Below are positions 2,344-58,586 of a stretch of DNA of 64,000 nucleotides, one piece after another. Made by a program: the position numbers and the translations under genes. Source of the stretch: Takakia lepidozioides (Eukaryota; Plantae; Bryophyta); contig CM060734.1 in the NCBI GenBank assembly GCA_030704615.1, positions 20,274,001 to 20,338,000 of the forward strand, in the 5' to 3' direction. The notes under the pieces are model-generated. The model was given only the letters and a program-made list of their open reading frames with translations, was not told where the DNA came from and did not search any database. Each line of letters opens with the position of its first letter. Position 1 is the stretch's first letter.

Positions 2344-5307
2344 TCAGGGATTTGTTCCTGAACGAGGTTTACTAATTTTGCCAACATTGAGCTCAGTGGC
2401 CGGGTAACTCCTGTATTTGAACCAGTGAGCTGCCCAGAGGAAGAAGATGAAGTTTAAGAAATTCAGCCCAGCCAGCAACCAGTAGAAGTAGTCCAAGTGG
2501 GCCCGATTCAAGTTGTTTATGAGCCAACTGGTCTTGCTACTAACGACAGACACTATAAAGGTGCTAACATAACTACCTATCGCTGTGGTGGTCCAAAAGA
2601 GAGCTGTTCCTGTAGCCTTCAAACTCTGGGGGGATTGGTCGTAAAAGAATTCGAGCTGGCCTATAATAACAAAGGACTCTGAAAGACCGAATAAACAGTA
2701 TTGTGGGATCAGCCAAAATGCTGAGATGGGGATTGTCAAGTCCGGTCTGTCCAGGAGTCCATATGTGCGGGCGGCGTTCCTTCTCTTGACTTCCACTACG
2801 GCTGATACTGCCATTGTTAGTGCGGCCAAGAAGAGGCCGAACCCTACACGCTGAAGGGAAGTGAGACCCCTCTCGTTGCCTGTGATACGTTTCAACATCC
2901 TCATTACGATGAAGTCGTAGATAGGGATCCATATAAGAAGGATGATGACGCCAAAGACACCGATGGAAGCTGCTGGGATTTCGAAGTGCTTGCCAAGGTG
3001 CCTGTACACAGTTATAAAACCTGACGGTCTTAGTAGGTAAATGCAGCTTAGGGTTCTGCAAGACTGCCAGCTTATATAAAGGGGTCCATTCCAATCAAAC
3101 CACGTGCTGTAGAGATGGCAGATAAAGGTTTGCATGTGAGATGTGTGGTCTACCTCTGTAGCAGCATAACCTAGTGCAGAGAAGATGAAGAAAAGGAAGA
3201 GTCATGATGGCTTCTGTACTGAACTTTACCTTTCCATACTGCGACCCTGCTGCACAGAGAATGTGCCTTGCTGGGCAACCACTGTGGCCGCAAGAATAGA
3301 GGTTGCCCATATTGGCACTAGTCGCACGAGTGTCTTTAGCTCTTCAACCTGATGCACTGTACATAGTCTCCAAGGACTGCTTCCATTGATTGTGTCACCT
3401 CCTTCCTCTATGGCCGCCTTGTCAAGAAATCTGAACACCAGTCATTGGGTAATGATGAGATGTATGTCAAGCTTGCTCAAGCCCACATGCCATGGCCATC
3501 CCCAACTACTTTATAGACGGTGGTGAGCTCGCACTGACAGGGGGAGACTGTGAGAGGTCAATTGTTATTAGTTGGGTGGAGGGAAAGGAAGCATGTCAGA
3601 CAGAGGTTTCTGGAAGGAACCTGCAGAAGGATTATCAGTACTCCTAGATCTTGGTGTAATCCAGTTGAAGAGACAAGGGCAGAATTAGTTCGTCCATATA
3701 ATCTGACAAGACTGTTTCAAAGATAGGAGGAAGATAGCTCACCTAAACTGGTTAGTGTGGGGAAGCTTGTTGTCTACTGTTGCACTCTTTGTTACCGCCT
3801 CCTTGTCATCTGTCTCATGGAGCATTGCAGAATCTGTGGGCAGCGAAAGACTTCTTTTGCGGACTGAAGCCACAAGCACTTGGGCAATTCGGGTGAAAGG
3901 ACTGCCACTGGGGGATACATGTCTATAGAGAGAATAACCTGCAACGAAGGATATGAGAGCCAAAAGCATGGCCACTGCTGGTATCCCAAACCCCCAACCC
4001 CAGCCAACATTGTCTTGTACGTACACAATCACTGTTATTGCACCGAGGATGGACAGACCAACACTGAAATAGTACCAGTTAAAGAAATGCCACATTTGCT
4101 CATTTTCTTTTGGATCTGATTGGTCGAACTGGTCAGCTCCAAAGGCTGCTACACAGGGTCGGATTCCCCCAGTTCCCACAGCTTGAAAGAAAAGAGCAGT
4201 GTATAGGAACCACAACTGGTTAGAGGTAGCCTCCTTGCAGCCGCCATGAATTTCCGCATCGAAAGCACATGCTGTAGGTTTCAGGGATGGGACTATGACT
4301 GACATTGTCAAAAAGACAATTCCCTGCATGTCAACAATGTCCGGAAGGTTACTTTCATGTTATCCACAAAACGCTCTGCAATGAAACTTCAGAGTTGAAA
4401 GGGTGATAAAGAGGGCTAAGAGAGCTGTTCAGAGAGAAAGCCTTTCTATGATTATTTTTATCAGCATGTTTTCAGAGGGGCATTCAGTTCCAAAAACTTG
4501 ACGTAAGACCTTACCAGCATGTTGATTGCTGAAGCGATGGCTATGGTTTTGAAGCGCCCCAGATATGCATCAGCAATGTAGGCACCTACTAGCGGGGTCA
4601 GGCCAGACGTTCCACTAAAATTATTGATAATGTTGGCAGCCTTCACAGTGGGTAGATGCATCTCCGACACCAAAAATGTCACCAGATTGAATGTCAGCCC
4701 AAATCCTGCAAGTCTTTCACATAGCTCGGTGGCTGAAAGGAGTCAAGACAAGGAAAGTCCGTCAGCAAATCAATGGCTTCATGCTAATTCGTAATCAAGC
4801 ATTCTAATGCAGTTTGTTGCCATGTAGAGCTGCCTCACCGAAGAGAGTCCTTCGCGGATCTAGCCTATGCAAACTTCGAAAGGATTGAAGGAAAGATTCA
4901 GAGCCCTACATGCAGAAAACTCAGACTAACAGATCCTCAAGAATGTCTTCAAAACAAGAAATTGGAGGAATGGTGGAAGTAGGGACAGTGCTATCAAATC
5001 GAATGAAACACAAAATGCAGCTTTCCAATTTATTTGCAGATACCTATGACATCTGGTGGAAATAAATGACTGGAATACCAGTTGAACCTCCACTATTTCT
5101 CAGCTACTGCATCTCAAACTGCCCTTGGACCTTGAAATTGCGGAGGTAGGCCGGGGAAAGGAACTCACCGAAAATGAAGGGAGTAGTCTTCCAGCCACCG
5201 TCCTTGCGCCTTCGAGTGGCAAAGTTCTTTGAATCGGCCAAAGCACCAGCATTAACCGTGCCCTCATTGTTGTTTGGATGATCCTCATTTCCCTCACTTT
5301 CTTGAAC
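2344..5307 (-). CDS. NPF: NRT1/PTR FAMILY (NPF/POT) nitrate/peptide transporter, spliced
   Basis: GT-AG exons 5307-5169 (GGWKTTPFIF), 4732-4515 (ATELCERLA, ExxERLA motif; ADAYLGRF), 4323-3743 (GTGGIRPCVAAFGADQFD, FFNWYYF), 3430-3230 (FLDKAA, WRLCTVHQVEELK) and 3001-2344 (LEFFYDQSP, HLDYFYWLLA, stop) join in frame. The start codon is unresolved and probably lies in a further upstream exon. Confidence 0.93.
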
Positions 5308-15989: not shown

Positions 15990-16110
15990 ATTTGCCTCGG
16001 TTGTCCCACCATTTACTGGGGTCAGCAGAGTATTCATCCCACAGCTTTTCCTCATATCTATTACCTGTTTTTGGATACTTTCCTGTTGTCACATTGGCAG
16101 TATCATTTCA
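15990..16110 (-). pseudogene. Captured fragment with an OSB-type (organellar ssDNA-binding) PDF motif
   Basis: Translation KYPKTGNRYEEKLWDEYSADPSKWWDNR matches the PDF motif W...P..WWDNR. A diverged duplicate (KYPKTDNIDEEKL) lies at about 27990-28075, across the Gypsy insertion. Confidence 0.6.
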
Positions 16111-16224
16111 GAGTCATTCCAAACAAGATTCACTCAACCAGCTAACTTGCAGAATTCAACATGGAAATTTAGGGCCAATTCTGATAAGAAGGAAAAACAG
16201 GGTGAAATATATTGAAGAAGGTGC

Positions 16225-16551
16225 TGTCAAGTTATTTTACCACTAGTGTGAAACTAGCTAGGAAATAGCTAGCTTTTACATATTGACATTTGGGATTGGC
16301 CCAAGTGTCAATCCAGGGGTCAAGGCAGATTTAGGCCCTGGAGTGGTTATCTTCACGGCAAGCGTGGGAGGCTCATCTTTCTCGAGTTGAGCCTCACCGC
16401 GCCTAGCTATGGCGCCGTAGTGTGGATTCCCCATGGCGTGGGGTGCACTTGGCTTGACTTGTATTTGAGTGATGAGGTTATATATGCATGAGTTTATGCT
16501 TCAGCTTTGTGAGCTCGCATGAGCTTGTGCTTGTATTCTTCTTCTTTATCA
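16225..16551 (+). repeat. Terminal repeat A1 (327 bp)
   Basis: Identical by eye to 27183-27509. Confidence 0.95.
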
Positions 16552-16567
16552 CTCGAGAAAGATGAGC
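16551..16567 (+). promoter_or_regulatory. Putative self-priming site at the PBS position
   Basis: ACTCGAGAAAGATGAGC is the exact 17-nt reverse complement of 16371-16387 in repeat A; no TGG-type tRNA PBS is present here. Confidence 0.55.
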
Positions 16568-17229
16568 TCGTATCTATGAGTGCTAGATACGAGTTAGTTG
16601 TAGCATTTGTGGTTTTTGCCTTGAAAATGAGGGAAACCAAGTGTTATTCAAGGAGCATCGTGGAGCTCTTGGTTGTGTAGAAGCGGAGGCGATGTGGGTT
16701 ACGAGGTGTTAAACCTGGCATTCGATCTTCAGCTCAGAGATGAAAGCACCGCTGCAGGTAATTCCAGAGCACCTTGATGGTTTCAGATTGTGTACATGCA
16801 GCATGAGCAAGCACGATTGGGAAGAGGACCAGTCAAGAGCAGGTTATAGTGGCTTTGGTGGCAAAGCTGAGAACTGGACTTGGGAATGCGAGCTTTCATT
16901 GTGTGAAGGATTGCAAGACCAAGCGAAAGGGCTGATTTGCTTGGGGCAAATCAGTGCACTTTGTGGAGTATGGTGAGATTGGGTTTCAATCTCGAGCTTC
17001 AGCATTGAGAGGGCTCTTGTCATGGCAAGAGCAGGGCTGGAACAGGAGCTAAGAGGTGCGGCAAGGCCATGGAATGTGCACCTAGGGTTTCAGAGCTTGG
17101 AAGAAGAGCTCTTGCACCACAAGAGAGTGTCTTGTGGCTGGAAATGTAAGCCTTAGGGTTTCAGGAGCTTGGCAAAGGCTATGGAGTGCTTAGTCTTGTC
17201 TTAGAGAGCATCAAGGAGCCAAGGAGCCA

Positions 17230-17720
17230 AGATAGGGGGCTGATATCTCTTGTGTGAAGAGGTTGCATGTGTGGAGCATGTATTCAGCTCATTGAAGCTT
17301 CCATCTTCAAGCTTGGGGGCAAGCAAGGAAGAGGGAAGGGCTGACTTCCCTTATGTGAGGGCAATGTATGTGTGGAGCATGCTATCAGCCTGGTGAAGGC
17401 TTGCACTTTAGGTGGGAGTGCAAGAAAGGAAGGAAGGGGCTGGTTTCCCTGTAGGGCATGTAGAGCATGCTTTCAGCCTGCTGAAGCTTGTATTTTCAGG
17501 TTTGTGGGTGCAAGAAATGAAGCAAATGAGCTGATTCTCTTATGGTGAGAGTGGGGCATGTGTGGAGCATGCCTTCAGCCCATTGAGGCTCTTGTTTTCA
17601 AGCTTTAGAGAGCTAGAACGGAAGGTCTAGGGCTGGTTTCACTTGGAGTGAAAGAACAGCACTTGTAGGGCCTATGTGAGTTGGGGTTTCAACTTCAAGC
17701 TTGAAGGAGCGCAACTCTTG
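17230..17720. repeat. Degenerate ~80-100-bp tandem repeats in the Gypsy 5' region
   Basis: Recurring GCATGTGTGGAGCATG...TTCAGC...TGAAGCTT...AAGGGCTG units. Confidence 0.6.
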
Positions 17721-18074
17721 AAGCAACAGGTGTAGAGGGGCTGGAATAGGCTCTAAGACAGATGCTATGGCCAAGAGAGTGCTTGAATGAGTGCTCACAA
17801 GGGCTGGGAACCAGCAGGGCTTGGTTGTTTGCCATTGAGTTTAGTGGCGTGTTTGGGGAGGCTAAGTGAGAAAGAAGGCTTGGTTTGTGGCAACCACCTC
17901 ATGCTTAGGGCTACTATGGTGGTGTGTGGGAGCCGAAAGAGCAAGGATACCTTGCTGATTTCCTCACAGCCACCATAGCTCGGTGGAAAGAAGCCTAGAG
18001 TCCAAGAGACACAAACCCTAGCTTGGCGTGGCTAAACCCCTTGGAGAAATGGCTAAACTTCCAGAGCGGCCATG

Positions 18075-18720
18075 GTGGGGCTGTGACAGGCTGTGGCAAG
18101 CTTCACGGGCTGTGTCAGGCTGTGACGGGCGTAGGGGGCTGTGACAGGCTGTGCCCTGTGCCCTGTGGCAGTGACGGGCTGTGACAAGGCTGCGGGCGAG
18201 CTGTGACAGGCTGTGCCCATGGCCTTTGGGGCTGTGACGGGCTGTGACAGGCCGGCTGCGGCCTTTGAGGCTGTGACGGGCTGTGAGGGGCTGTGACAGG
18301 CGTGCCCATGGCCTTTGGGGCTGTGACGGGCTGTGAGGGGCTGTGACAGGCCGGCCTGAGGCTTGGGGCTGTGACGGGCTGTGAGGGGCTGTGACAGGCT
18401 GTGCCCATGGCTTTGGGGCTGTGACGGGCTGTGAGGGGCTGTGACAGGCCGTGCTGAGGCCTTTGGGGCTGTGACGGGCTGTGAGGGGCTGTGACAGGCC
18501 GTGCCGCCCTGAGGCCTTGAGCTGTGACGGGCTGTGATGGGGCTGTGATGGGCTGTGACAGGCTGTGCCCGTGCCTGTGGGGCTGTGACGGGCTGTGACA
18601 GGCTGTGACAGGCGTGCCCAGTGGCCTTTGAGGCTGTGACAGGCTGTGAGGGGCTGTGACAGGCTGTGCCCAGTGGCCTGTGGGACTGTGACGGCTGTGA
18701 CCAGTGAGCTGTGTGGGCCT
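18075..18720. repeat. GGCTGTGAC(G/A) minisatellite in the Gypsy leader
   Basis: Dozens of 10-bp GGCTGTGACG/GGCTGTGAGG units grouped into ~55-60-bp higher-order units. Confidence 0.9.
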
Positions 18721-19430
18721 GTGCTGGTCTGTGGTGGCCCGTGTTGACCTGTGGACGGCCTGTGCTGACTCGTGGAGGCACTGGTGGACTGCCTAAGGAC
18801 TGGCATGTGGTCTGAAGGCCGAATTTTGAAGCTCGTGGAGGGCGGTTTGAGGAGTATCTTCATGATATTCCCATGGTCATGCAAGTGAGGGTAGAGAGGA
18901 GAGGCAGAGTGTTGGGATGAGAGCATGCTGGGGTTAGGCATTGCTTTAGCTTCTCTTCCTCGTAGTTCCACCTCTCATTAGGCCAAGACCTTTCCGTAGG
19001 TGGAGGCAAGAGTCAGTCCGGGTTTGGGCTGGGGTGTCCTTGCAGGAGCAACACCGTGGAGTTGTTTTTGGTGTGGGGAGTTGTCGATGATTTCTTGTGT
19101 TTGGATCCCCTCCATACCTGCATGCTTGACTGTGCGCCATGCTAGTTTTGTGTGGGCGCTTGTTTTTATAGGTGATTGGTCCGGATTTGATCACCGGCCA
19201 GTCCTAGAGCATGCTGTCGATGGTGAGGCTGGGTGATGACCAGCCAGACCATCATTGTTTCTCCTGTGGTGAGGTGGAGGTGATGACCAGCCAACCATAG
19301 GAGTGCTTGCGGTGGATGCAGGTACAGGTGTAGGCTATGTTAGGAACTTAGTATTCCAAACCATAAGCCGCAACAGGTTCTCTACCCGGTTACCTTGTGG
19401 AGAGGGGGTTAGGGACATGTTCATGACCGG

Positions 19431-20995
19431 TTGAGTGTCAACACGGAGGTGCCACTAGTTGCTGGGGACAGTGCCGGTTCGAGCACTAGCGATACTAGTG
19501 GGTACACGAGACGAGGTGTGCGGTTTAGGCCACCTTCACCTCCTGTGTCTTCCACGGAAGGTTCTGATTCGGATTGTGAATCAGGAGGACTCATACCGGC
19601 GGTGCAAGTTGTTTCTTTGCCATTGTTGTGGGACACAATGGAGGAGATGTATGGAGCTACCAAGGGGCCACGAAGGTACTCTGGGCGGTGGGCACCATCG
19701 AGTTGGATGATTTTATCCAAGAGTTTGATAGTTGGTGTGATTTGCAGCAAATGCGCAATCCACAACTATTTACGCCTTTCATGGCATGGAAGGGGCTGTT
19801 TCAGCACCTTGAGGGGCCGCCTATGGATGATTACCATGAGTTCAGGCGGGGGCATGAGGTTGAGATCGAGGAGTGGAGGATGTACTGGTCACCCGACTAT
19901 GTCTCCATCACTAGGGGCACTAGAGCCACGAGGGCAGTGGCTACACCTGCCGCTGCACCGGCAGCTTCAGCAAGCAGCAGTGGGACTGGTGGTACAGTAG
20001 CTACGACGTCCACCCAAGCCACTACCGCACCAGCACTAGCCCGTGCCTGCCTTCAACCCTGTTGTGGAGTTCTTCGAAGAGTTGAGAGGGAACTACCAAG
20101 GGGTGAGGACAGAGAAGTTGCGGAGCTTGCAAGAGTTCCAACGGAAGCCGACCGAGAGCTTGAGGGAGGCTTTCACTCGCATGAGGCGCTTGATAAATGT
20201 AACCCAAGGGGTTACGGAAGCTCAGGCAGTCCAATTCTGGTATGGGATATTGGACAAGGAGCTGAGGAGAAGGGTGCGGGATGCAACTCTCCTACAAGCG
20301 GCCCAACCCACCTTAGCAAATGTGTTTTTGCTGGCAGAGCGGATAGAGCTCAACATGGTGGAGGAACGAGTGGTCATGGTGGGATTTGCTAAGGAGACAC
20401 CACGGGGTAGTGGTGCTCCTAGCCAACCACTACCTCAACGTGCTCAAGGCAACAAAGGGGCTCAGGTGAAGCTCAGGGAAGGGCAGAGAGGACCTCAGAT
20501 GCAGGGGTCTCTCCCTTCATTTGCTGGCCAACAACGGGCGGATGTGGTGTGCTGGACATGTGGAGGACCCCATGTCAAGAAGGATTGCCAGAGGGAGGCA
20601 AAGGGTCGGCACATGCACAGCCTGCACAGTTGCAGTGTGGGCATTGTGGCAAGCACGGGCATGGAGAGGCCCAGTGTTATGGTTTGCATCCTGAGTTGCG
20701 CCCAGGCCAGTTCCAAGGGAACAATGGTGGCCGGGGGCGAGGTGGAGCAGCCCAGAGAGGACGAGGTGGCCAGCCACGAGGTGCAGGCCAAGGGCAAGCT
20801 CAACGTGGCCAAGGACGCGGAGGTCAGGGTGTTGACCAAGGCATGGCCAACCGGCTTCAGCAGCTAGAGCAGAGGCTCGCTGCCATGGCTACAGCTCAGG
20901 TGGTACCGGCTCTAAGGCCGGATGGTCACCTCCTGCTCCTGAGGGAGGAGATATGGGAGGCATGGGATTCATGTGTGGAGCAGCACTACCACTAG
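19431..20995 (+). CDS. gag: Gypsy gag with two CCHC-type zinc knuckles (frameshifted in this sequence)
   Basis: Overlapping ORFs 19431-20000, 19628-20392, 20043-20867 and 20549-20995; gag-like QKPTESLREAFTRM region; knuckles CWTCGGPHVKKDC and CGHCGKHGHGEAQC. Confidence 0.8.
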
Positions 20996-22340
20996 TGCAG
21001 GTGGAGTCTGCTGCAGCCGTGACTCGAGGAGCAGCACGAGTTCCTGAGCCACGAGGTGCAGAGGTGGAGTTGGATCCACAGCGTGGGGAGGCAAGCCGTC
21101 AGGCTAGGCTTCCTCAGTCATTCACATTGGCGGAGACAGTGTCGACGCCATCCATGGCACCTAGTTCTCGCCCGACTGTTACCGAGGCGGAGGTTACTAT
21201 GCCATTGGGGAGAGCTACACGGGTAGCACCACTACCTAGTGTTGCCAAGGCTACGGCAGCTAGTGTGCTGTTAGGAGCGGCCACATCTGTGTGCCAGGCT
21301 CCATTGTTCTCGGCTACCATGATTGCGACGCCGGGGATAAGACCAGCTGAGGTGTTCAGGCTGGCAGCTACACTCTGTGAGAGTGGGGAGGTTACTTCAT
21401 CTTCTGCGGAGATAGTGGGAGGTGTAGTGCCGGAGGGATCCTCGGATTTGAGGGTCAAGACTGCCACGGCGGCGCCATGGCAAGCTGCAGCTGCCAGGTT
21501 GATGGAGCTGCCAGCTAGGCCAGCCATTGAGCGCGCCATGGTGACACCTGGAGTTGTCATGTTAGACAACCAGGATGGCATTTTCTGTTTGAGTGGACCG
21601 GCAGGCAAGAGGTACCGGCCACTGCGGGTCTTGTTGGACTCGGGAGCTCAACCATTGATGCTGGGCAGAGCTGCTATTGCAGGCTTGGGCCTCACGGAGG
21701 CGGATATGGAGCCTTGTCCTTTCCAGATACAGACGTCTCTGGGAGGATCGGAGCAGGCTCGGGGCATGACACGGCGTGAGTTGGCTATCAGACTACGGCC
21801 GGATCACCCTACAGATGGCTCAGTGATGCGAGCCAAGGCCATTGTGACAGACGCAGTCTCATACGATGTCCTGGTTGGTGGGGCAGTGTTGTACCCCATG
21901 GGCTTCACCCTGGATTTTTGGGAGGAGTCAGCTTCCTATAGGCCTGCATGGCAGTCAGGGGAGGGCCGGCGTGTGCAGCTCCCTGTGACGTTCATAGGAG
22001 GAGTTGCGGTTGCCCAGCGAGGCAAGATGCCGACACTAGCAGCATTCACAGCGGCAGTGAGTTGGCCTAGAGAGTTGCTTGAGGGCAATGCTCATTCAGA
22101 GGATGTACCACCTCCGGGAGAGCAGGATGACATGTATGGTATGGCGGAGTTGCCTACCATGGTTGCTCAGACTCCATTGTGGGGCACGAGCAAGGATTTG
22201 CAGCGGGATGCTGATCGACGGGTGCAACAAGCCTGGGTGGAGGCTTTTGTACCGTCAGGAGAGGAGGAGAGTGTGGGGATTGCACCAGGACCACCTCAAT
22301 TGTCTCCATTGGACACCACACCTATTGTGTGGCAGTCTCC
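20953..22340 (+). CDS. Gypsy aspartic protease region
   Basis: Active-site motif VLLDSGAQ (Asp codon 21637-21639) and downstream YDVLVG motif. Confidence 0.85.
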
Positions 22341-22344
22341 GGAT

Positions 22345-23310
22345 GAAGGCATTTGTCTTCTGGACTTGTTTGGCGGGATCAGCACCGGATTGGCTGCTGT
22401 GTTACAGGCAGGTGTACGAGTTCGGCGTTACCTGTATGTGGAGAGGGATGAGACTGCACGACGCGTTTCACTTCGCCATGTTGCTCAGTTGGTGCAGCGG
22501 TACCCTGAGTTGTTGTCGGTGTCTGCAATTCGTGGATATCAGCAGGCCTTGCCAGCAGACATTTCGTTGCTGGGGGCGCAGGATTTGGAGCGGGTTGGCT
22601 CCATTGATCTGGTAGTGGCAGGTTGGCCCTGCCAAGGGCATTCATCAGCCGGGCATGGCAATGGATTGCGAGACTCGAGGTCGGGTCTGTTTTGGGAGAT
22701 GGTACGGGGTTTTGCGCCACTTGCAGCTTCATCAAGCTGTATCTCCAGCATACATCTTGGAGAATGTGCCACTGATGGGCGATTCTCGGGCCAGGGTGAT
22801 GGCCAGTGTGCATCAAGTCCGGTCGTGGCTTGGGTCAGCAGTGTTGCTAGATGCAGCTACAGTGGGGTCACGGGCTCATCGTCCACGGCTATGGTGGACT
22901 AACATGATGCCACCCGCACTGCTCAAGCGTGCATTTGATGGGGTGCAGCGGCCAGCACATCTCACAGTGGATAACATTCTGGACACAGGGAGGCAGTCTC
23001 AACGTGTGAGACACGATGACCGTTCGCCTTTGGCAGTGGTCAACAAGGTGGGTCAACCACGAGCAGCATTACCTACACTGCTCAGCCTCCCAGGATCGCA
23101 TGCTTTCCGGGATAGTGGACCTGGCCTCCTGTGGGATGCTCAGTTGCAGCAGTTAGTGGAGCCTAATGCTGACGAGCGTGAGCGGGCAATGGGTTTTACC
23201 ACTGGTACCACGGCGGTGTCGTCTCTTTCTGAGGCATCACGTCGTCAAGTGTTGGGGCAAGCAATGGATCTCAATTGCTTGACCTGGATTATCAGCTTGG
23301 CTCTAGCTGA
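22345..23310 (+). CDS. C5-cytosine DNA methyltransferase domain (DNMT3-like motifs) inside pol
   Basis: Motif I LDLFGGI (22360), YVE, motif IV DLVVAGWPCQ (22621), motif VI ENV (22760), motif VIII AHRPRLWWTN, motifs IX/X ERERAMGF...RQVLGQAMD. One frameshift near 22705 between ORFs 20953-22902 and 22655-23599. Confidence 0.92.
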
Positions 23311-23599
23311 GCAACGCAGAGTGCGGAATACACTTCCCTCAATGGTCTCTCTGCCTACCGAGACGGTACAGGCAGTGAGTGGGGGCGAGCATATGAGGAC
23401 CACGGGGTGCATGCATCCATGGCACACGTGGGAGGTGCTCGAGGTTCAGAGGGAGTTGGCAGCCAAGGCGGCTGTGATGGATGAGGTTGGGGATTCTTCT
23501 CGAGTTGAGGAGGTCCTCAAGGATGAGATGATGGGGCAGGATGATGCCTTGTCATTGACTGAGCAGGTAGGGAGTACTGCTCAAGAGGTTGCAGCATAG

Positions 23600-24969
23600 C
23601 AACCACGGGACGCGTCCTCTACCTCTAAGCCCACTGGACTTAAGGTTGTAGTTACGGAGGACAATTGGGAGCCTGACATTGGACCCATTGTCACCGGAGG
23701 AGAGAGACGACGTATACGGCGGTTCCTGAGGGCTTACAGGAATTGCTTTGCCTTCAGTTTGAAGGACTTGGGAGCACTGAAGGGTCAAGAGATCCGTATT
23801 GAGTTGGCCACTGACACGCCAATCTTTCGGAGACCCTATAGATACAGTGACATGGAGAGGTCTTTGATTCAGATGAGGACTCAAGATCTCTGGAGGCAGG
23901 TTTGGTGGAGCTCTCTGGTGGAGAGTATGCTTCAGCCACAGTGATGCCAGCCAAGAAGGATGTCTATGGCAATTGGACGGAGAGACGTATGTGCGGTGAT
24001 TACCGGCCTGTAAATCGTCAGACCAAGTCCGATAAGTATGCCATGCCAACACCAGAGGAGATCTTTGATGCCATCGGGCATGCTAAGGCCTTTAGCACTT
24101 TGGATTTACGATCCGGATATCACCAGTTGCCAATCAAGGAGGCGGACAAGCAGAAGACGGCATTCTGGGGGATCAATGAGCACGGCAAGGATTGCCTATA
24201 TCAGTGGCGGTTCTTACCATTTGGGCTTAAGAATGCTCCTGCAGAGTTTCAGAGAGTCATGGATAGGATTCTAGCAGGGGTGGACTTTGCTCGGTGCTAC
24301 ATAGATGACATCATCATCTTTAGTGTTACGATGGAGGAGCATGAGAGACACCTTCAGGTGGTATTGGAGCGCTTGAGAGCGCACGGATTGAAGTTGCATC
24401 CGGGGAAGTGCAAGTTTTTCCACAACCAGATTGAGTATCTGGGTCACATGATATATCCTGGAGGATTGGGGGTACAGCAGACTAAGGTAGAGGCCATTGC
24501 ACAAATTCCACGCCCCACGGATGTGAGCCGAGTTCGAGCTTTCATGGGGTTGGCAAACTATTATAGACGGTTTGTCAAGGGATTTAGTACCATTGCAAAG
24601 GCTCTAACCAAGCTGACCAAGGTGGACCAGGAGTGGCAGTGGGAAGATGAGCAGGAACGAGCTTTTCAAGAGCTCAAGGCGAGGTTGACCTCGGCGCCTA
24701 TCTTGAGACGACCTATCAGGGGGCGTCCCTTTCAGCTGCATACGGATTGGAGCATGCTGGGGCTTGGAGCGGTGCTCACACAGGTGGATGATGAGGGAAG
24801 AGAGTTCGTAGTGGCTTACGCTAGCCGCTCGAACAACGCTGCAGAGGCTAAGTACAGCTCATATGAGGGAGAGTGCTTAGCTGCAGTGTGGGCCGTGGCA
24901 CACTTCAGGTGCTATCTATACGACAATCTTTTCACCTTGTCACGGATCACCAGCCACTCAAGTGGTTGA
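23600..24969 (+). CDS. pol: Reverse transcriptase and RNase H
   Basis: [29 protein letters not shown] (24298-24309); RNase H HTDWS...GAVL and YSSYEGECLA. Frameshift near 23890. Confidence 0.95.
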
Positions 24970-26732
24970 TGGAGTCAGACAAGCTTACGGGGAAGCTTGC
25001 ACGGTGGGCACTTATACTCCAGGAGTATGACTTTCAGGTTGTGCATCGACCGGGTTTGGTCAATCGGGATGCGGATGGATTGAGTCGCAATCCATGCATG
25101 AGCCAGCAGGATGACACTGGAGCTCGGTGGCATGGTGAGACGGACGAGGAGATGGTGCCGGGATGGCACGCATCTGCATTTTTGTGTATCTTGGCATCGG
25201 GAGGTCAGATTGGACCTACAACAGGGATGACTGTAGACGGAGTGTCTGAGGACCCTGAGGCTAGTGATGAGCTAGGTGGTGCCAGAGATATACATGAGGA
25301 TTCGGCTGTGTTGGACTACCTCCGCACGGGAGACACGGCAGCCATTGTGACTGCCAGGGAGAGGGATCGGATCCTGCAACGAGCCAAGAGGTTCAAGTGG
25401 GAGGGGATACACCTACTTCGAGTGTGGGAGGATGGTCGGGTGAGGATTGTGCCTCACCCCACACAGCGTGCACGGTTAGTGCGGCATGCCCATGAGGAGT
25501 TGGGGCATTTTGGAGTGCGACGCACTCACAGTTTACTGCAGGGGCAGTATTGGTGGCGTGGTATGCATACAGAGGTGCAACAGTTTGTGGCTAGGTGCAT
25601 GGTGTGTGACAGGGTGCGTGCTTCATTCAACGCCCCTACACCACAGTTGCATCCTTTACCTATCATGGGATTGGGCTACAGGTGGAGTCTTGACTTCGCA
25701 GGACCGTTGCCACTGACTATGCGCCACCACAGATATGTGTTGGTGATGGTGGAGCACTTCTCCAAGTGGATTGAGTTGGTTCCATTGCCTGACAAGGCTA
25801 GTGAGGGGGCTGCGTATGCATTCTTGGATCGTGTGCTTAGCCGATTTGGTGCTCCAGCTGAGGTACTCACGGACCAAGGGAGAGAGTTCTTGGGGGAGTT
25901 TCAGGCTTTGTGTGATAAAGCCTTGATAGACCACCGCACCACTTCTCGGGATCATCCTGAGGCCGATGGCTTAGCAGAGAGAGTTGTTCAGACGGTGAAG
26001 AGGGGTTTGCGCAAGTATGGCTTGCAGAAGGGACACCTAGGAGATTGGGATCTTCAGGTTCCTTGGTTAGCCATGGGCTACAGGTTCAGCAAACAAGCAT
26101 CACTTGCCTCCTTCTCACCATATTTCCTTCTCTTTGGCCGAGAGCCGGATTTGCCTGTAGCCATTCGTAGGGACACTGCTCAAGTCCTTAACCTTGACGA
26201 TCCGGATGTGTGGGTACGTGCATGTGATCAGCGTGCAGAGTTGTTCAAGAAAGTCATGCCCATGGCTTTTGAGAACCTTGCCATTGCACAGCACCGTGAT
26301 ACGTTGAGGTATGCCACTATACGTGGTGGAGGATATCGTCCTGGGGTTCGGAGGTTTAGCCCTGGTGACTATGTTTATTTGCAGCAGACTGCTCCTACGA
26401 CTCTGGATGTTACTGCAGGGCGTGTTATTCTGAGGGTTCGAGAGGTGTTGCCCTCAGGGGTCCTGATCTTGGAGGGTCGGGATGGCATGACTTGGAAGGA
26501 CCATGTGCGTAATTGTGCGCCATGTCACCTTCCCAATGTCGATGGCAGAGTTGACCCAAACTTGGCAGTGGTACCTGCAGGTTTGAGGTGCATGCTCTGT
26601 GGGTCTGCCAAAGGGGCAGCCACCATGCTGGTGTGTGATCGATGCTCAAGGGGTTGGCATATGGGATGCTTGACACCACCTCTTGAGAAGGTTCCTGACG
26701 GAGATTGGTTGTGTCCACACTGCTTGGGATAG
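24873..26732 (+). CDS. DDE integrase with C-terminal PHD finger
   Basis: HHCC (HEELGHFG...CMVC); core LDFAG, TDQG, GLAER; PHD CMLC...CDRCSRGWHMGCLTPPLEKVPDGDWLCPHC (26589-26723). Confidence 0.95.
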   Translation: MLSCSVGRGTLQVLSIRQSFHLVTDHQPLKWLMESDKLTGKLARWALILQEYDFQVVHRPGLVNRDADGLSRNPCMSQQDDTGARWHGETDEEMVPGWHASAFLCILASGGQIGPTTGMTVDGVSEDPEASDELGGARDIHEDSAVLDYLRTGDTAAIVTARERDRILQRAKRFKWEGIHLLRVWEDGRVRIVPHPTQRARLVRHAHEELGHFGVRRTHSLLQGQYWWRGMHTEVQQFVARCMVCDRVRASFNAPTPQLHPLPIMGLGYRWSLDFAGPLPLTMRHHRYVLVMVEHFSKWIELVPLPDKASEGAAYAFLDRVLSRFGAPAEVLTDQGREFLGEFQALCDKALIDHRTTSRDHPEADGLAERVVQTVKRGLRKYGLQKGHLGDWDLQVPWLAMGYRFSKQASLASFSPYFLLFGREPDLPVAIRRDTAQVLNLDDPDVWVRACDQRAELFKKVMPMAFENLAIAQHRDTLRYATIRGGGYRPGVRRFSPGDYVYLQQTAPTTLDVTAGRVILRVREVLPSGVLILEGRDGMTWKDHVRNCAPCHLPNVDGRVDPNLAVVPAGLRCMLCGSAKGAATMLVCDRCSRGWHMGCLTPPLEKVPDGDWLCPHCLG

Positions 26733-26981
26733 TGGCAGTGGACATGACTGGAGGCAGCTAACAAGACATGGGAGGCCAAGCTCATAGGAGTCAATACATG
26801 AGATCCCAAGCTCAAGTTCACAGGTTGCAAGACGGCGACTAACGATGGGGCAACTCTTGCACCCGGCCTCTTGATCTATCGAGTTTGAGTGTAGTAGGGA
26901 TAGTGGTGGAGGACTTAGTGAGGCTATGGTCACTATCACATCTTGTGGCTACCTGGACTTAGAGGGACCTAAGCACCAGCT

Positions 26982-26991
26982 AGGGGGGCGA
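26982..26991 (+). promoter_or_regulatory. Polypurine tract
   Basis: AGGGGGGCGA directly upstream of the TG that starts repeat B1. Confidence 0.6.
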
Positions 26992-26992
26992 T

Positions 26993-27180
26993 TGTGTGGA
27001 CTAGTGATTGCCATAGTGGGCAGCGTAGTGGCAGCCTAGTGACTGACTAGTTGTAGCCTAGTGGTTGGACTAGTGGCTGGACTAGTGGTATACTAGTGGT
27101 ATACTAGTGTGTGGTGTGCACATGTGTTGTGTGGTTTTGGACAGCGATGTAGTTGTGTAGCGATATGTATGCGCACGACA
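26993..27180 (+). repeat. Repeat B1 (188 bp)
   Basis: Same as 27511-27686 apart from one extra 12-bp CTGGACTAGTGG unit. Confidence 0.93.
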
Positions 27181-27182
27181 GC

Positions 27183-27509
27183 TGTCAAGTTATTTTACCA
27201 CTAGTGTGAAACTAGCTAGGAAATAGCTAGCTTTTACATATTGACATTTGGGATTGGCCCAAGTGTCAATCCAGGGGTCAAGGCAGATTTAGGCCCTGGA
27301 GTGGTTATCTTCACGGCAAGCGTGGGAGGCTCATCTTTCTCGAGTTGAGCCTCACCGCGCCTAGCTATGGCGCCGTAGTGTGGATTCCCCATGGCGTGGG
27401 GTGCACTTGGCTTGACTTGTATTTGAGTGATGAGGTTATATATGCATGAGTTTATGCTTCAGCTTTGTGAGCTCGCATGAGCTTGTGCTTGTATTCTTCT
27501 TCTTTATCA
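27183..27509 (+). repeat. Repeat A2
   Basis: Copy of 16225-16551, joined to B1 by the palindrome GACA-GC-TGTC. Confidence 0.95.
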
Positions 27510-27510
27510 T

Positions 27511-27686
27511 TGTGTGGACTAGTGATTGCCATAGTGGGCAGCGTAGTGGCAGCCTAGTGACTGACTAGTTGTAGCCTAGTGGTTGGACTAGTGGTATACT
27601 AGTGGTATACTAGTGTGTGGTGTGCACATGTGTTGTGTGGTTTTGGACAGCGATGTAGTTGTGTAGCGATATGTATGCGCACGACA
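27511..27686 (+). repeat. Terminal repeat B2 (176 bp)
   Basis: Copy of B1; ends GACA followed by TSD GTGC. Confidence 0.93.
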
Positions 27687-28559
27687 GTGCCTTCATTAGC
27701 AGTGCCTGATTTTATCCATTGTGCCGCTGTTGCGGCAGCTTCCAGTTGACCATCTGTTTCTTGTAGCTATCCTCCACAAGGAATCATAGGTAATGTGGAG
27801 CTTGAAATCCGGGCCTCTTGGATGAATCTGGACCCACAATCTATCCCTGCACTCCTTCAGCTATCCATGCCTGTGTACAAATCGTGAATACATCCTCAGC
27901 CTTGCTGCAGCTAGCAGCTGACACTGACGCCCTAACCCTGCCTACAGTAACATGTCAAAATCACTCCAAAATCACCATAAAGATTCACCAACGAGCTTCT
28001 CCTCATCTATGTTATCTGTTTTTGGATACTTTCTTGCTGCCACATCGGCAGTAACTTGTCAAAGTCACTCCTAACCACCACAGATCCACCCAACGAGCTT
28101 CTATCTGTTTGAGTTGAACCCTTGTATCATCGTCAAGAGAAACTTACAAATCTCTCACCTTCCTCTATTCCATCTCTCTCACACAAACAACCAGATTGTC
28201 ATCTGCTGTCACACTTGTGTTGGTAACTAGCTAGACTCCTGCAAAATCAGCTGTGAATAATTATGGCCACTTCACAAAGAGACTACAGAGGAAAATGCAT
28301 TGGAGATGGAGAGATAGAGATGGAGAAGACTAAGTGGCAGACTTGTCCATGGAGGAAAATACTCAACAAATCTCTTGGTTACTAAGAGACCTTCTCCACT
28401 TGTCAAACAGGGATGAGTTTGCCCTGAATCTCCCATGCCGACTATTGCAGCCTGCGCACCACCTCCCGAATCTAGACGTATTCCTATTTGTGCGTAAGAA
28501 TAACAAAAGGAACGAGAAGAGTTCGTGTGTGCCCCTTGGCGTTCCTTTGGAGACCCAAA

Positions 28560-33696: not shown

Positions 33697-36600
33697 ATGT
33701 CTACACCAAAATATGCAGTGCTTTCATGTCCACCTGATGCAAAAGTGGTTCGTTATCCTTGCAATGGAAACAAGTGCATTATCCCAGAACCTTGGTTATG
33801 CAATAGATTCAAACTTGTTCCGGGTTCAGTTTTTTTGGAGGATGATGGAGATGATGATGCCTCCACAATGTTGCTTCCAGTTTTCAATGACGGCCAAAAG
33901 CAATGGGAGTTGTTTCCAGACACTTTCTCCAAGTACCGTGTCACAGGTACGAGCTATACACAGTCACATGATGAGAGGCACACTTCTATTGCAAGAAAGA
34001 ACGATCAAGCTGCAACAAATGGGAGTTGTAAATTGAAGGAGGAGGTTGCAGATTCGGCGAGCTTGGGGTCTCATAATTCGGATTGTGTTGAGGTTTTCTA
34101 AGAGTGTATTTTGTGGATCTCAACCTTCCTCATCTGCTCATATGGTCTTGCTTCACGACATGAAGCCTCGGAAAACTCCATTGGACAACACCACGTCTGA
34201 TTGTTGCGAATCTGCGAGGGGTTTATCTTCATCTCCACGACTAGCAGGGGAGGCTACATCTGCATTTCCTTCTGGTGTGTTGTCCATTTTGAGTATCTTG
34301 GCCACTGCTCGGAGGAATGGATCAAAAGGAGAGCTTTCTACCTTGGACTATAGTCACATTCCAGTGCATCGTGTTCGGTGTCTTCCTCGAGCTTTTGATG
34401 GAAAAGTGATCCACGAACTCCCCCCCGTGGTCAAACTACGTACGGACCGTGGTTCACAGTCCCTCCAAGGCATGGACCGCAAGTTTGATGGTCATCCTTG
34501 GTGCAAGACCAATACCTACAATATGTCTGGTGTTCCAGATCATGTGAAATGTAGTAAGGTTCTTTGTGTTGGAAAGCTCATATGTCAAAGCAGCACTTGC
34601 CCCTTCTTCAAGAAAGAAGGAGAACGGAATGACCGCTATTGGGAAGGCAATGCAGACAAGGTGTTCATTGCAGGAGCCCAAGTTCCATTCAACCAGTTCA
34701 AGTGTAGTTTCTGCAAAGAAAGACCTTTCTGTGAGGCGCATTGTGGGGCAAGAATGTACTATGTCACAAGTTCCCTTCCAACATATACACGTGTTGCAGT
34801 TCACGTTGGGTTTCATAACCATCCATGTGCCAAGGGCGAGAATAGAGAGGCTGCGGAAAATGCATCAAGCATGATTCAAGAGCACGTTAAGATGAAGCCA
34901 TGGTCGACCCCGGGAGCTATTTCCTTGTCAATGGCCCAAAAGCTCTTGATTGATCAAGTTCTTGTGGCTGATGGCACAGAGACAGTACGTCTTGAGGGAG
35001 AGGCTTTGGAAGATATTCTTGAAGAGTTTGCCAATGTTTGTAGCCCCAATGTGAAAAACAAGGTCGCATCTGCACGTGTCAATTCCATCATGTCCATATT
35101 GGAGTTGAAGCGTCTGAGTACATACCATTTCATTCACAGCAATCTCCTTCCAGGCCAGCATACTTCTCATCTCCCCCATGTTTTCAAGATGTCTGTTGCT
35201 GGTCCCGGGAGTGGTGTTGATCTTGTGCGTCGCATGAGTGAGGGGGATCTACGCACAAGTTGGGTAGTATTTGACCATGTCAAACGCATCAAGGATTGGA
35301 CAACTCTTGCGTGTCATGTCTATGAACCATATGTCAAGCGAATGATGACCATTGCCATTTGCGATATGAAAACAGAGGATGCAGATGCTCAGGTGTTATT
35401 CTGAGAGATGATCAATGAACAAGCAAAACTTGCTGGCTTGAACAAACCAAATTTTGCTGGCTTCATGGCGGATGCAGCAGGAGCGAATTGGGCTGCTGTT
35501 CGAAGGGTTTATGGATCTGATCCCAATGTCCCAATGGAAGGTAAAGAAAGAACATGTTTATATCATTGGGCTGAAAGCCTCCGAAGACACACCAACGACT
35601 ATATCTTGGAGGACTTCCGTGAAATGCACACTCAGCTCTGTTATGAATGGAAAGATAGTGCTACCTTGGAGGATGCTACAACCACATACATTGCAATTCG
35701 GGCTTGGTGGCTCTCTTCAGGAGCATGCACAGAAAAGAGTCTGCCAAAACTGGATTCATGGCTTGCATGGTGGCACTACAGATATCGAATGTGGGGCCAA
35801 TGGATGAGAGAGGACATGGATGTGGAGGCAGATGCAGATATGCCTACCACTAATTTGTCTGAGGCAGTCCATTCTGCTTGGTGGAAGACAGCAGGCAATG
35901 GGAAAAAAATGAAGGTGGATCTATATGAGGCCACCATGCATGACATATCACGAGCTCTTTTGCAGCAGGCAACATTTTACAGGCACACCACAGGAAAGAC
36001 ATGGGGGACGGGGCCCGACAAAGAGGAGCTCATGTTGCGTCAAGCAGCTAGATCTAATAGCCCAGCAAAAATGGGTAAGGTTGTACGTGGCATAGTAGCT
36101 GAAACACCCATGCACACAAGGGGGGTTCAATTGGAGGGAGACAATCGCACTATTCCAGTCAAACGCAAGTTAGGCGATGAGCATGGTGGGCCAAACGAAT
36201 CTTGGAGGTGTGATATGAATGTAAAGACTGTTCCAGTGCGCACCACTGGGATGCCCAGTCCACACCATCCATCTAGGTTTGTCAGCTCCAAATCAAGTCA
36301 TGACATTCCTGGTTCTTCGACTTTCTATGAGACAAATCCACATGTTGCTCTCCCTCCTCAGCCAATGCAATGGGGAAATCCAGCGAGAGAGACACAAAAC
36401 TTTTCCGATGCATTGTTCAGGATTCAGCGGACAGGTCCTACTTCCATGGTTCGTTGTTCTGCCATGGTTGGAGTTTCCAAAGATAAATGCAAAGCGCTCA
36501 TCAGGAAAGGTAAAGGAAGTCCTGCACCTTACTTCACTGGCAAGTTACTAGCACCGAACATGAAAGAACCAAAACTGCAAGTTTTTTGGTTTTGCCCCAC

Positions 36601-37240
36601 AGATGTTTTGTCGTGTGTTGGAGGGACCGTGCCATCCTATTGCTTGGGAAAACCGGGTATACCTAACGTGTGGCCTGTGAAGGTTGGAACCAACCTTACA
36701 CAAGAAGAGGTGGACAACTTGACCCTTGCAGGTTTTCGACTAGTCCATCCTCCCAACGTTCCTGATCCGAACTTTCCTGTGGGACCACTTCCAGTGGAAC
36801 AACATATTCATCAAGGTGTTGTCCTTCCTGTGGGTAAGTATCCCACTACACGCTATGGGGTGCGCATTCGGCATCGGGATCCGACTCCTCGACACTTGAG
36901 TCGCCAAAAGTCAGCGGAGACTCTTATTGCTGAGGTTCGTGGATTCAGAAACGTGCCTCAGCCAGGTTATGGGAGAATTTACCAGCTACAAACAGAGGGA
37001 TCTACCAGAGCAGGATTGGCTTACAATGTATACATTGGTCAGTTTCCATCTTGTGATTGTCCCGACTTTGATGAGCTATCTGTCAAGAAGAAAAAACAAA
37101 CATATCTACCTTGTAAGCACATGTACTTCATATACAACGTGCATCTAGGATGTGCCGGGGCTTATGAGATCCACCAACCTTCCCTTAGCCAGTTAGAGGT
37201 TAGGGCTATGCTAAAGAAGGACCCTAGTTCAACTTCTTAG
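33697..37240 (+). CDS. MULE-type DDE transposase with N-terminal Cys/His (GCM/WRKY-like) region and C-terminal SWIM finger; interrupted
   Basis: VFDHVKR, FMADAAG, CLYH (CxxH), TTNLSEAVHS; SWIM CDCPDF...PCKH. An in-frame TGA at 35402-35404 joins ORFs 34046-35404 and 35408-37240. Confidence 0.85.
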
Positions 37241-37861
37241 TAACACATGAAATGCACAAAAAAAGAACCTCTAACTTGTGCCGTTCATTTTCATGCATGT
37301 GACATGTAATTATCTTGTTACTACTTTATTCCAAACATGACACATAGCATTTGTTAGTACAGAAGTTCCTATTTTGGTTAAAATGGAACTTGTGTACCTG
37401 TCATACAAGTTTTCAAATTATAGAACTTCTTGGCATTACAAACAGACATGCAATGTGGTGGTTCCAAACATGCCACATATGCATTTGTTAGTACAAAAGT
37501 CCATATTTTGGTTAATATGAAACTGTTTTCCTTGAATACAAGTTTGCAAACTATTACTTTGGCCAGGGATCTTGTATTCTCTTCAGTTTAAGGTGGTGCA
37601 TTAGTTGGAGTTAGTGGTCACATGCATCTTTGACCATTGACTACTGATTTTGTTAGCTAAGATTTTTATTTTATTTTTTTCTATATACATATGATGTAAC
37701 ATTTGCATATGTAATAAATACGTCGTATTTTTTGTTATATAACTCCACTGCATACAATCTACAATGTGTGCATACAAATTTGTCACATGCATATATAATA
37801 AGGGATTTTGTGCATGCATGCACGCAACCTATGCATATGGAATAGCAACCCCCAGCCACTC

Positions 37862-38530
37862 TGGTATGTAAAGGGCGAATTTTCTCAGTAGAATCATTTT
37901 GCTGCACTGTCAATAGTTCAAGTGCCTCTTGTGCGTGACCTGGCTGAGCTAATCCAGCCATCGTCCCATTCCATGAGATCACATCACGCTTGGGCAATTT
38001 TGCAAACACTTCCCGTGCATCTTCCACACCCCCGCATTTGCAATACATGTTGACGAGGGCGTTCCCCATATTGACATTTGACTGAAATCCAGCTCTAATG
38101 ATGCCCTCATGGAGCTGCTTGCCTTGCTCTATCAACAATGGGTTGGAACATGCATTCAAGATGCATAAGAAAATGACCTTATCTGCCTTCACATCTTCTC
38201 TTTGCATCAGATTCACTCGATTCACACAGTAAACTTATGCACCCGATTGTCAACCTCAATGCAGCTGTGCCCTGCCTCCTTTCTAACACCTTTGTCCTTC
38301 ATCATTGCTCTCGCCTCTGTGGGATCACCCCACCTGCCAGCTGCACCCCACACTTGGCATACATATCAACGAGAGTATTCTCCAGATTCAAATATGACTC
38401 TGTTCCAACATCGATCGCAGCATGGACCTCTTTTCCCTTTTCTAGGGCTGCCAGGCTCGCACATGCATTGAGAACACAAATGAACATGACTTTGTTGGGC
38501 AATACCCCTTGCTCAATCATTTGCTCATAG
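37862..38530 (-). pseudogene. PLS-type PPR fragments (CACTA cargo)
   Basis: KVIFLCILNACS...GKQLHE...NALVNMYCKCGGVEDAREVFAKLPKRDVISWN and PNKVMFICVLNACASLAALEKGKEVHA...NTLVDMYAKCG. Confidence 0.85.
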
Positions 38531-47140: not shown

Positions 47141-47392
47141 ATATTGGTAACCTTCACTGTCCAGTGGAGGTTCAATAAATTCGGAGTAACGAAAGGAAGT
47201 TAAAGTCTATAACCCAATGTTGTTCTCCCAAACGGAAGAGTTGAAGGTAGAACTTCGTTAATAGATTTCAAGGAGGAAGTCACTGAAAATATAGATCTCT
47301 CCGGAGATTGATGAAAGACACTTGCAATTAGAATGCAGGTTGGACTACAGTTTGAGATGACTACATATATGTTCTTTCAGCAGGAGTCACAT

Positions 47393-47605
47393 TTGTGTGG
47401 GCTGTGACGACTGTGACGGGCTGTGTTGGTTGTGTGGGCTGTGTCTGCTGTGACGACTGTGACGGGCTGTGTGGGCTGTGTGGGCTGTGACGACTGTGAC
47501 GGCTGTGTGGGCTGTGACGGCTGTGTCGGCTGTGTGGGCTGTGACGACTGTGACGGGCTGTATTGGCTGTGTGGGCTGTGACTGCTGTGTCGGCTGTGTG
47601 GGCTA
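47393..47605. repeat. GGCTGTG(AC/TG) minisatellite
   Basis: Tandem 9-10-bp units with the same core as 18075-18720. Confidence 0.85.
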
Positions 47606-47767
47606 TGTAACCCCCCTCTACAGTGCGCTGCTGTCACCCCTAAGGTTCCTGTTTGTCTCAGTCTGTGCAAAAATTAAGGGTACCCTACAGATCCCGTATA
47701 AGTGTCTAAGTCCCCTACAGTCCTCTAACATTACCCCTTCCCCCCTCAAAAGCCGTGTCCTCACGGT

Positions 47768-57806: not shown

Positions 57807-58532
57807 TGTCGCGGCCCTTTGCCTTGAGGGCAGGGGGTCGGGACACATGAGGGGCTGCCCCTGTGGTGGGGGCAGCGGCAGCGATAGGTATGGGGGGGCT
57901 GAAGCACCCTTGAGTGCCCAAGGCACTCAAGGAGGCGGAGGCGCTCACTAGGTGGAGCCCCGCACACCGGGTTGCGGTGGGGTGGCTCCACAAGGGGTGG
58001 TGGTAGCTTAGCGGGACTTAGTGGGGGTGGCATAGGACTCACCATGGGGGCGGAGACCTCGTGTGGGAGTCGTGGGGAGTCTTGGGACTCATCACGGTCC
58101 AGAGGGGCCGTGGTGAGTGGGCCAAGACTCACCGCGACTCATCACCGGGAGTCGAGGGTTTTCGTGGTGGTTCGCCATAAAATGGCATGGCTGGTTGTGA
58201 AACCCCCGCGGACAGCTACAGAAGTATATATAAGGGGTAGTGACCCCGAGAACGGTGCAAGCCCGTTGGTGACCAAAAACTAGTGAGTAAGCGAGCGAGC
58301 CGGAAAGCGACCAAAGAGTGGGGAGCTGTTCCGGACTGCCATCTACCAAAAGAAATTCTCCTAGGCCCAAATAGGTGGAGGGTTTAGTGGGAAGCGAAGG
58401 GGGGACCGTTATGTCTCGGTGAGCAGCCGAAGCTCCAAGTTGGCCCGGGCGGCCAGATTGGGAGTCAGGCGCGCACATCGGAGCGAGTAACTATGACTTG
58501 AAGGGGAGCTTACCGAAGTGAGGTGCGCGACA
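57807..58532 (+). repeat. 5' LTR
   Basis: Inverted 7-bp termini; matches sequence from 63559 onward. Confidence 0.93.
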
Positions 58533-58534
58533 CT

Positions 58535-58546
58535 TGGTATCAGAGC
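58535..58546 (+). promoter_or_regulatory. Primer binding site for initiator tRNA-Met
   Basis: TGGTATCAGAGC, 2 nt after the LTR end. Confidence 0.93.
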
Positions 58547-58586
58547 TTAGAGTTCAGTACGCGATCGTCCTTGGGATTGGCCTCAT

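Follow-up and report, generated by a model that had tools for sequence, protein, structure and literature searches.

Split direct repeats on a DDE-integrase Gypsy retrotransposon of Takakia lepidozioides, with insertion ends at a conserved palindrome inside the long terminal repeat

How does a retrotransposon encoding a DDE integrase come to lie between split direct repeats, an arrangement described for elements that carry a tyrosine recombinase? The question is raised by an element at positions 16221-27690 of a stretch of 64,000 nucleotides (nt) from Takakia lepidozioides (GenBank assembly GCA_030704615.1, contig CM060734.1, positions 20,274,001 to 20,338,000 of the forward strand), which in its full length is termed the window. 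The initial annotation of this stretch had left two options, namely a one-off, circularly permuted insertion or a distinct mode of replication; the former has fallen, the split layout being the norm of the family, and the latter is upheld. The comparisons given below place the insertion ends at the halves of a palindrome conserved in the middle of the long terminal repeat (LTR), and make it probable that the DDE integrase cuts there and that the ends left by reverse transcription are joined by the host.

Read on the plus strand, the element consists of a left target-site duplication (TSD) GTGC (16221-16224), A1 (16225-16551), the coding region, B1 (26993-27180, 188 nt), a GC spacer (27181-27182), A2 (27183-27509), a single T (27510), B2 (27511-27686, 176 nt) and the right TSD GTGC (27687-27690). 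Comparison of the repeats within the window bears out this anatomy, which had been noticed at the outset: A1 and A2 are identical at 327 of 327 nt, the sole difference between B1 and B2 is a 12-nt indel in a short tandem unit, and the resulting order (A-coding-B-A-B) is that of DIRS-like split direct repeats. Both signals expected of LTR-type copying are present, a primer-binding site (PBS; 16551-16567) after the 5' repeat and a G-rich polypurine tract (PPT; 26982-26991, found in the same place in relatives) before the 3' repeat. Because the PBS comes after A and the PPT before B, the sequence supports B-GC-A as the conventional LTR, as the initial annotation had proposed, with B as the putative U3 and A as the putative rest of U3, R and U5; A-T-B as the true LTR was rejected on the same grounds. 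The B1|A2 junction carries GACAGCTGTC (27177-27186), a perfect 10-bp palindrome with a single occurrence in the 64 kb and the predicted attachment (att) site of the integrase in its uncut form; A1 begins at its right half and B2 stops at its left half. The element is not bounded by two complete LTRs with att sites at the termini of reverse transcription: its copying looks Gypsy-like, but its integrated ends do not. The insertion target, GAAG-GTGC-CTTC, is symmetric about the TSD (16217-16224 and 27687-27694) and lies in a multi-copy host repeat, of which 16033-16144 is 77% similar to 27983-28099.

Relatives were found via an integrase alignment of 32 sequences and comprise 89 loci, the best 80 of at least 415 metagenome matches together with 9 from genome bins; no relative was found among viral contigs. 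A 3' end of the form B-A-B is seen in 32 loci, corresponding to 25 distinct insertions (7 sharing a flank were dropped) spread over four families besides that of the window, while B followed directly by flank is seen in 20 loci, or 17 distinct insertions (3 dropped; the end of L076 is degraded). Five loci are special (L007 and L081 are wraps, L019 and L030 are cut or deleted, and L049 is described below) and the other 32 either break off too soon or have diverged beyond the reach of the probes. An ordinary end, in which B-GC-A is followed by flank, is absent from all 43 readable 3' ends (the window included), and none of the 11 visible 5' ends is ordinary; L007 and L081, which read B-GC-A-PBS, were rejected as ordinary ends and are assembler-collapsed wraps. 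The split layout is thus the family norm. The placing of the integrated ends at the two halves of the internal palindrome likewise holds beyond the window: 11 of 11 visible left ends begin at the right half, none being preceded by B, and 40 of 40 tallied right ends, in different flanks, stop at ...ACA (from 41 rows, with L019 dropped and L074 corrected by 1 nt; L076, L050 and L067 were not tallied).

Both ends are visible in 11 distinct copies, seven of the form A...B-A-B and four of the form A...B, and the mirror form A-B-A...B is absent from the 11 visible 5' ends. An exact 4-mer TSD flanks eight of these copies (the window, L002, L036, L044, L079, L017, L024 and L028) and a TSD with one mismatch flanks L070; no target preference beyond A/T richness emerged from 41 flanks. 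Copies ending in B alone show no consistent difference in age from B-A-B copies (p 0.23, 0.12 in the opposite direction, and 0.07), a result compatible with their arising at insertion but also with a later B-B deletion. A clear solo A-B unit with a TSD was not found in about 0.97 Mb of loci (one on the minus strand of L019 is partial). As separate observations, L052 (3167-3400, minus strand) holds a 3' fragment, PPT-B-flank, joined in inverted orientation to the last bases of A and the PBS of a plus-strand element, and is taken as a rearranged or autointegrated copy, while the retrotransposons L081-L087 lie in contigs of prokaryote genome bins, most likely as eukaryotic contamination.

Support from reads was sought in assembled contigs from six host runs, of which X1, X2 and X4 represent one sample, possibly the window's own source. 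The A-T-B joint is bridged by contigs that differ from the window at several sites, one with a 4-nt insertion, and the B-GC-A joint by one diverged host contig. Empty sites, in which contigs pass from the right flank into left-flank sequence over a single GTGC, are present in paralogous copies of the host repeat (18, 47 and 31 contigs in X1, X2 and X4, with loose ends before 27687), and none was among the rows listed for X5. Other host copies, in runs from different studies, have the same ends: two X12 contigs and one X5 contig start at 27183 in different flanks, a third X12 contig starts in effect there (seen at 27186) in a different flank, and one X6 contig stops at 27180, again with a different flank. 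Neither flank before B nor flank after A occurs among the loose ends listed. Three further readings were set aside: the depth in X12, whose RNA nature is a guess, is high over A as far as its nucleotide 220 and low past about 27400, and contigs cannot show RNA ends; contig depths in X6, at 75-114 for the internal region, about 142-152 for B and about 150 for A, do not measure copy number; and the single contig from run X8, of organism B, stops inside B1 and is uninformative on the element ends. In a host subfamily seen in X6 and X12, B is far shorter (at 26996-27136 of the window), and its PPT and final 45 nt are those of the window copy.

The palindrome and the predicted termini of reverse transcription behave differently across families. 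All 24 B|A junctions compared, which come from five families, preserve CAYGACA-GC-TGTCA, six positions being invariant and all but one of the departures within the 14-nt core being transitions. Among the distant relatives (44-50% integrase identity), seven reach far enough downstream to be read, and four of these carry the core GACA-GC-TGTC, three of them within perfect palindromes of 16-20 bp; a fifth has the variant CTCA-GC-TGAG, and in L045 and L087 the palindrome was not found, these distant sites being read without visible element ends. The nucleotides that follow the PPT, like those that precede the PBS, vary between families, two of which lack TG after the PPT. Since the palindrome is conserved and the predicted reverse-transcription termini are variable, the att-like signal sits at the internal site rather than at those termini.

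The other joint, A|B, is variable. Its 26 examples are blunt, have a 1-nt overlap or gain 1-2 nt, and differ within families, with fillers of about 17 nt in L003 and L080 and a large deletion in L061; such variation resembles that of end-joined DNA, and the T at 27510 is the predicted ligation point of two reverse-transcription ends. Furthermore, in each of the three families that could be tested, B1 and B2 of one copy are closer to each other than B repeats from different copies are (transversions 0.006 vs 0.011, 0.017 vs 0.085 and 0.010 vs 0.023), as expected if both come from one template in each cycle.

The coding region places the element in a Ty3/Gypsy lineage with a DNMT3-like domain, a DDE integrase and a PHD finger, as judged from its domains, all on the plus strand. 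A gag region in several frames (19580-20995; Retrotrans_gag E 0.0023, below the cut-off) is followed by a frame (20836-23599) with an aspartic-protease-like motif (LLDSGA) and then a C5 cytosine methyltransferase domain (about 22351-23320; PF00145, E 3.6e-8; frame change near 22.7 kb). The protease is read from its motif alone in the window, and a Pfam protease is present in relatives. Reverse transcriptase and RNase H (23600-25030, with two frame changes; RVT_1 E 1e-33) come next, Ty3 being nearest among solved structures (Ty3 Gag-Pol E 6e-63), and an integrase with an HHCC finger and a D-D(35)-E core closes the region (25458-26732), so that the order gag, protease, reverse transcriptase, RNase H, integrase is that of a Gypsy element. 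The D-D(35)-E triad is intact, a PHD finger (26589-26723) occupies the integrase C-terminus in place of a chromodomain, and no Pfam family of tyrosine recombinase or of any other nuclease was found in open reading frames (ORFs) of at least 100 aa, both strands being scanned for the recombinase; the assignment to a DDE integrase rather than a recombinase thus stands. As assembled, the window copy has six frame changes relative to intact relatives, most of which have one ORF of about 1230-1450 aa and another of about 1040 aa, a few having a fused one. A single in-frame TAG (23597-23599), followed by CAA, divides the gag-protease-methyltransferase frame from the reverse transcriptase frame and is possibly a read-through stop. 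Pieces of the methyltransferase match 36 of the 39 loci with more than 4.8 kb upstream (two of these on the opposite strand only), and that of the relative L007 has DNMT3A/B/C as its best PDB matches (E about 1e-7). The nearest named homologs of the window element are from liverworts and mosses, with named relatives in liverworts, Sphagnum and Haematococcus. A GGCTGTG-type tandem array (18073-18720) lies in the long 5' non-coding region.

The PBS is not of the tRNA type. Its 17 nt are complementary throughout to A positions 147-163 (16371-16387, the predicted self-primer segment), which suggests a self-priming, Tf1-like element, and the same continuation is found behind A in host run X12. A complement of 14-21 nt at A positions 146-198 is present in 11 of 15 junctions with a family-specific sequence, and in families F1 and F3 and in L007 the self-primer segment is preceded, at a distance of about 25-30 nt, by a TATA-like box. 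In L049 (3244-3878), B-GC-A-PBS is followed by A 1-176 in reverse-complement orientation, with 9 differences over these 176 nt; the inverted segment stops at the att half-site, beyond which lies flank. From its sequence, this locus is likely the product of copying an over-long self-primer.

These signals can be arranged into a putative cycle. Transcription would begin inside A1 and stop inside A2, leaving B2 untranscribed. The RNA 5' end would then prime itself at the PBS, for which complementarity is seen, and the PPT would prime the plus strand, giving an ordinary complementary DNA (cDNA), [B-GC-A]-internal-[B-GC-A]. The geometry of the ends suggests that the integrase would next nick each strand of GACA-GC-TGTC just 3' of its CA, leaving 2-nt 5' overhangs, and that strand transfer would lose the GC and create the 4-bp TSD. 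Such ends would resemble those of normal retroviral 3' processing. From the variable joints, it is further proposed that the free ends (the end of A and the start of B) are joined to give A...B-GC-A-x-B, which would keep one intact LTR and hence be copyable again. In the least certain step, the palindrome of the 5' LTR would be the one captured, with joining around or after strand transfer. In the standard scheme, plus-strand synthesis arrives at the 3' LTR long after the 5'-LTR region has become double-stranded, which is the reason for placing capture there. A...B copies might arise by capture at an earlier stage with one LTR, or by cutting of both palindromes, and would be dead ends.

Within this account, a free circle might come first: the finished cDNA would be end-joined into a 2-LTR circle, which the integrase would open at the palindrome. 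All of the steps up to joining would be shared, and this version, which we regard as possible though tentative, is a sub-case that draws its likelihood from that of the wider reading. It accommodates both forms of copy with ease, since opening a 2-LTR circle gives exactly A...B-GC-A-x-B and opening a 1-LTR circle gives A...B; the A|B joints resemble circle junctions, and the integrases of foamy virus and HIV-1 have been reported to linearise 2-LTR circles (PMC1180852; PMC4372172). Nevertheless, the two palindromes of such a circle lie in identical surroundings for 100 bp or more, and A-B-A...B and A...B-A-B would be expected in roughly equal numbers; the mirror form occurs 0 times against 7 among the 11 visible 5' ends (about p 0.008 if the two were equal, in a small sample). 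For this reason, capture of the 5'-LTR palindrome is slightly favoured over a free circle.

Several points weigh against integrase cutting at the palindrome followed by end-joining. We infer every enzymatic step, cutting by the integrase included, from comparisons of sequence, and the loci compared are short-read metagenome assemblies, the best 80 of at least 415 matches. Two of the 11 two-ended copies (L065 and L072) have no TSD, the self-primer match reaches only 7-10 nt in four of 15 junctions, and a TATA-like box is not clear in A of the window, L020 or L036. Joint types recur, a CA-G-TTG type in five of seven F1 copies and CAAT-ATAC in four of 12 F3 copies, and could also come by inheritance through RNA. 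As regards capture at the 5' LTR, the 5' end is visible in only four of the 17 B-only copies; the remaining 13 may include mirror forms, and mirror forms may also have been reduced to A...B by A-A deletion.

Inheritance of the joint is the basis of an alternative modelled on PAT and Ngaro, in which RNA would run through B2, the A2|B2 joint would be inherited, and B1-GC-A2 would template a circle junction opened by the DDE integrase. The repeat order is that of PAT, Ngaro and VIPER (PMC6681497), and the recurrence of some joint types within a family is what this route would give. Conversely, the PPT before B1, the self-priming PBS after A1 and the TATA-like box in A of several families fit ordinary LTR copying, B2 tracks the B1 of its own copy, and A|B joints carry fillers and deletions whereas B|A is invariant; the templated route is consequently judged unlikely. 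More doubtful still is the suggestion that the palindrome ends are made by something other than the integrase, such as a host nuclease or extra sites of priming and termination, with the integrase performing strand transfer alone. In its favour, the role of the integrase as the cutting enzyme is a prediction, and the site is like a restriction-type palindrome in an element that bears a methyltransferase; against this, two cuts after CA, one in each strand and 2 nt apart, have the geometry of integrase 3' processing, and the scan of the element's ORFs revealed no other nuclease family. Finally, a one-off permuted insertion of an ordinary LTR element is refuted and an assembly artefact can hardly be credited, even though L007 and L081 prove that collapse occurs in these data, given the B-A-B layouts of 25 other insertions in four other families, the lack of any B-GC-A end followed by flank, the other host copies that start at 27183 or end at 27180 in other flanks, and the appearance of the layout in print for Klebsormidium (PMC5890265).

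That printed case is KnitGypsy-Dnmt3 of Klebsormidium nitens, described as combining Gypsy domains with repeats in the DIRS arrangement (de Mendoza et al., 2018, PMC5890265, Fig. 4c legend), the acquisition of Dnmt3 being reported for the K. nitens lineage. It resembles the window element in its Gypsy domain set, its Dnmt3-related domain and its A-coding-B-A-B order, but the accessible part of the account mentions no palindrome, TSD, self-priming, A...B form, mechanism or PHD finger. Klebsormidium integrases, whether of KnitGypsy-Dnmt3 itself or of another element, are 45-55% identical to that of the window, and Klebsormidium is absent from 45 long DNMT matches. In the literature searched, which lacked most subscription papers and Repbase, no other paper using the name 'KnitGypsy' and no account of the mechanism, or of split repeats on a DDE element elsewhere, was found; the split layout on a DDE Gypsy element is therefore known once in print, from an alga. 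DNA-methylase transposons have been described as absent from land plants such as tracheophytes (PMC6338049), and the DNMT3-like domain of the window element extends the Klebsormidium observation to land plants.

Other known systems share single traits with the window element. PAT, Ngaro, VIPER and TATE have the same order A1...B1-A2-B2 (PMC6681497) but encode a tyrosine recombinase, whereas the window element has a DDE integrase, a PPT, a PBS and 4-bp TSDs. In foamy virus, the integrase cleaves a palindromic junction just 3' of CA in each strand, so that 2-nt 5' overhangs remain (PMC1180852), and use of 2-LTR circles by integrase has been reported for HIV-1 (PMC4372172); the resulting ends look processed, as in the cycle proposed here. 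There, however, the palindrome arises when reverse-transcription ends join and the cut restores a normal provirus, while in the window element the palindrome is templated inside the LTR, away from those ends, and apparently offers the sole route. Self-priming LTR elements include Tf1 and Tj1 (PMC4600332) and plant Tcn1 (PMC6317226), whose PBS, like the sequence of that in the window element, is complementary to a segment within the 5' LTR; unlike the window element, they have ordinary LTRs at both ends, and Tcn1 elements are chromoviruses, in contrast to the PHD finger found here.

In the textbook view, LTR elements integrate by way of the termini that reverse transcription leaves, and circles formed by end-joining are mainly regarded as dead ends. 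The present lineage appears to do the opposite, and offers a natural system to test the opening of a palindrome by integrase as a normal route. We lean towards the broader view that a green-lineage Gypsy clade moved its att site from the cDNA termini to a templated mid-LTR palindrome, such that each productive insertion would need opening by the integrase and joining of the reverse-transcription ends; circle-like end-joined DNA would then be obligate, and the layout would have converged on the split repeats of tyrosine-recombinase elements. The comparison suggests that the repeats of PAT and Ngaro could likewise be LTRs opened at an internal site. In practical terms, finders that need two full TG...CA LTRs and a TSD will miss or mis-bound such elements in bryophyte and algal genomes, and A-B units and A...B copies will go unrecognised as their products; the plant survey of Neumann et al. 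(PMC6317226) used LTR-FINDER and required TG/CA LTRs with TSDs.

Apart from this element, the window contains a second, frameshifted Gypsy element (58502-62412, plus strand) with gag, CCHC, protease, reverse transcriptase and integrase. An array of the GGCTGTG type, like that of the first element's 5' region, spans 47372-50467 and adjoins three long minus-strand ORFs without a convincing Pfam match. At 41100-45400 lies a long array of about 50-nt units in both orientations, each with a short GC-rich hairpin (GCGACCGCCA...TGGCGGTCGC), which possibly represents the subterminal repeats of a DNA transposon. Two long plus-strand ORFs split by one stop (34037-37240), with a weak SWIM finger (E 0.002), probably encode a Mutator-like transposase, and host genes on the minus strand are a POT/PTR transporter (2344-4359) and a PPR fragment (37671-38234).

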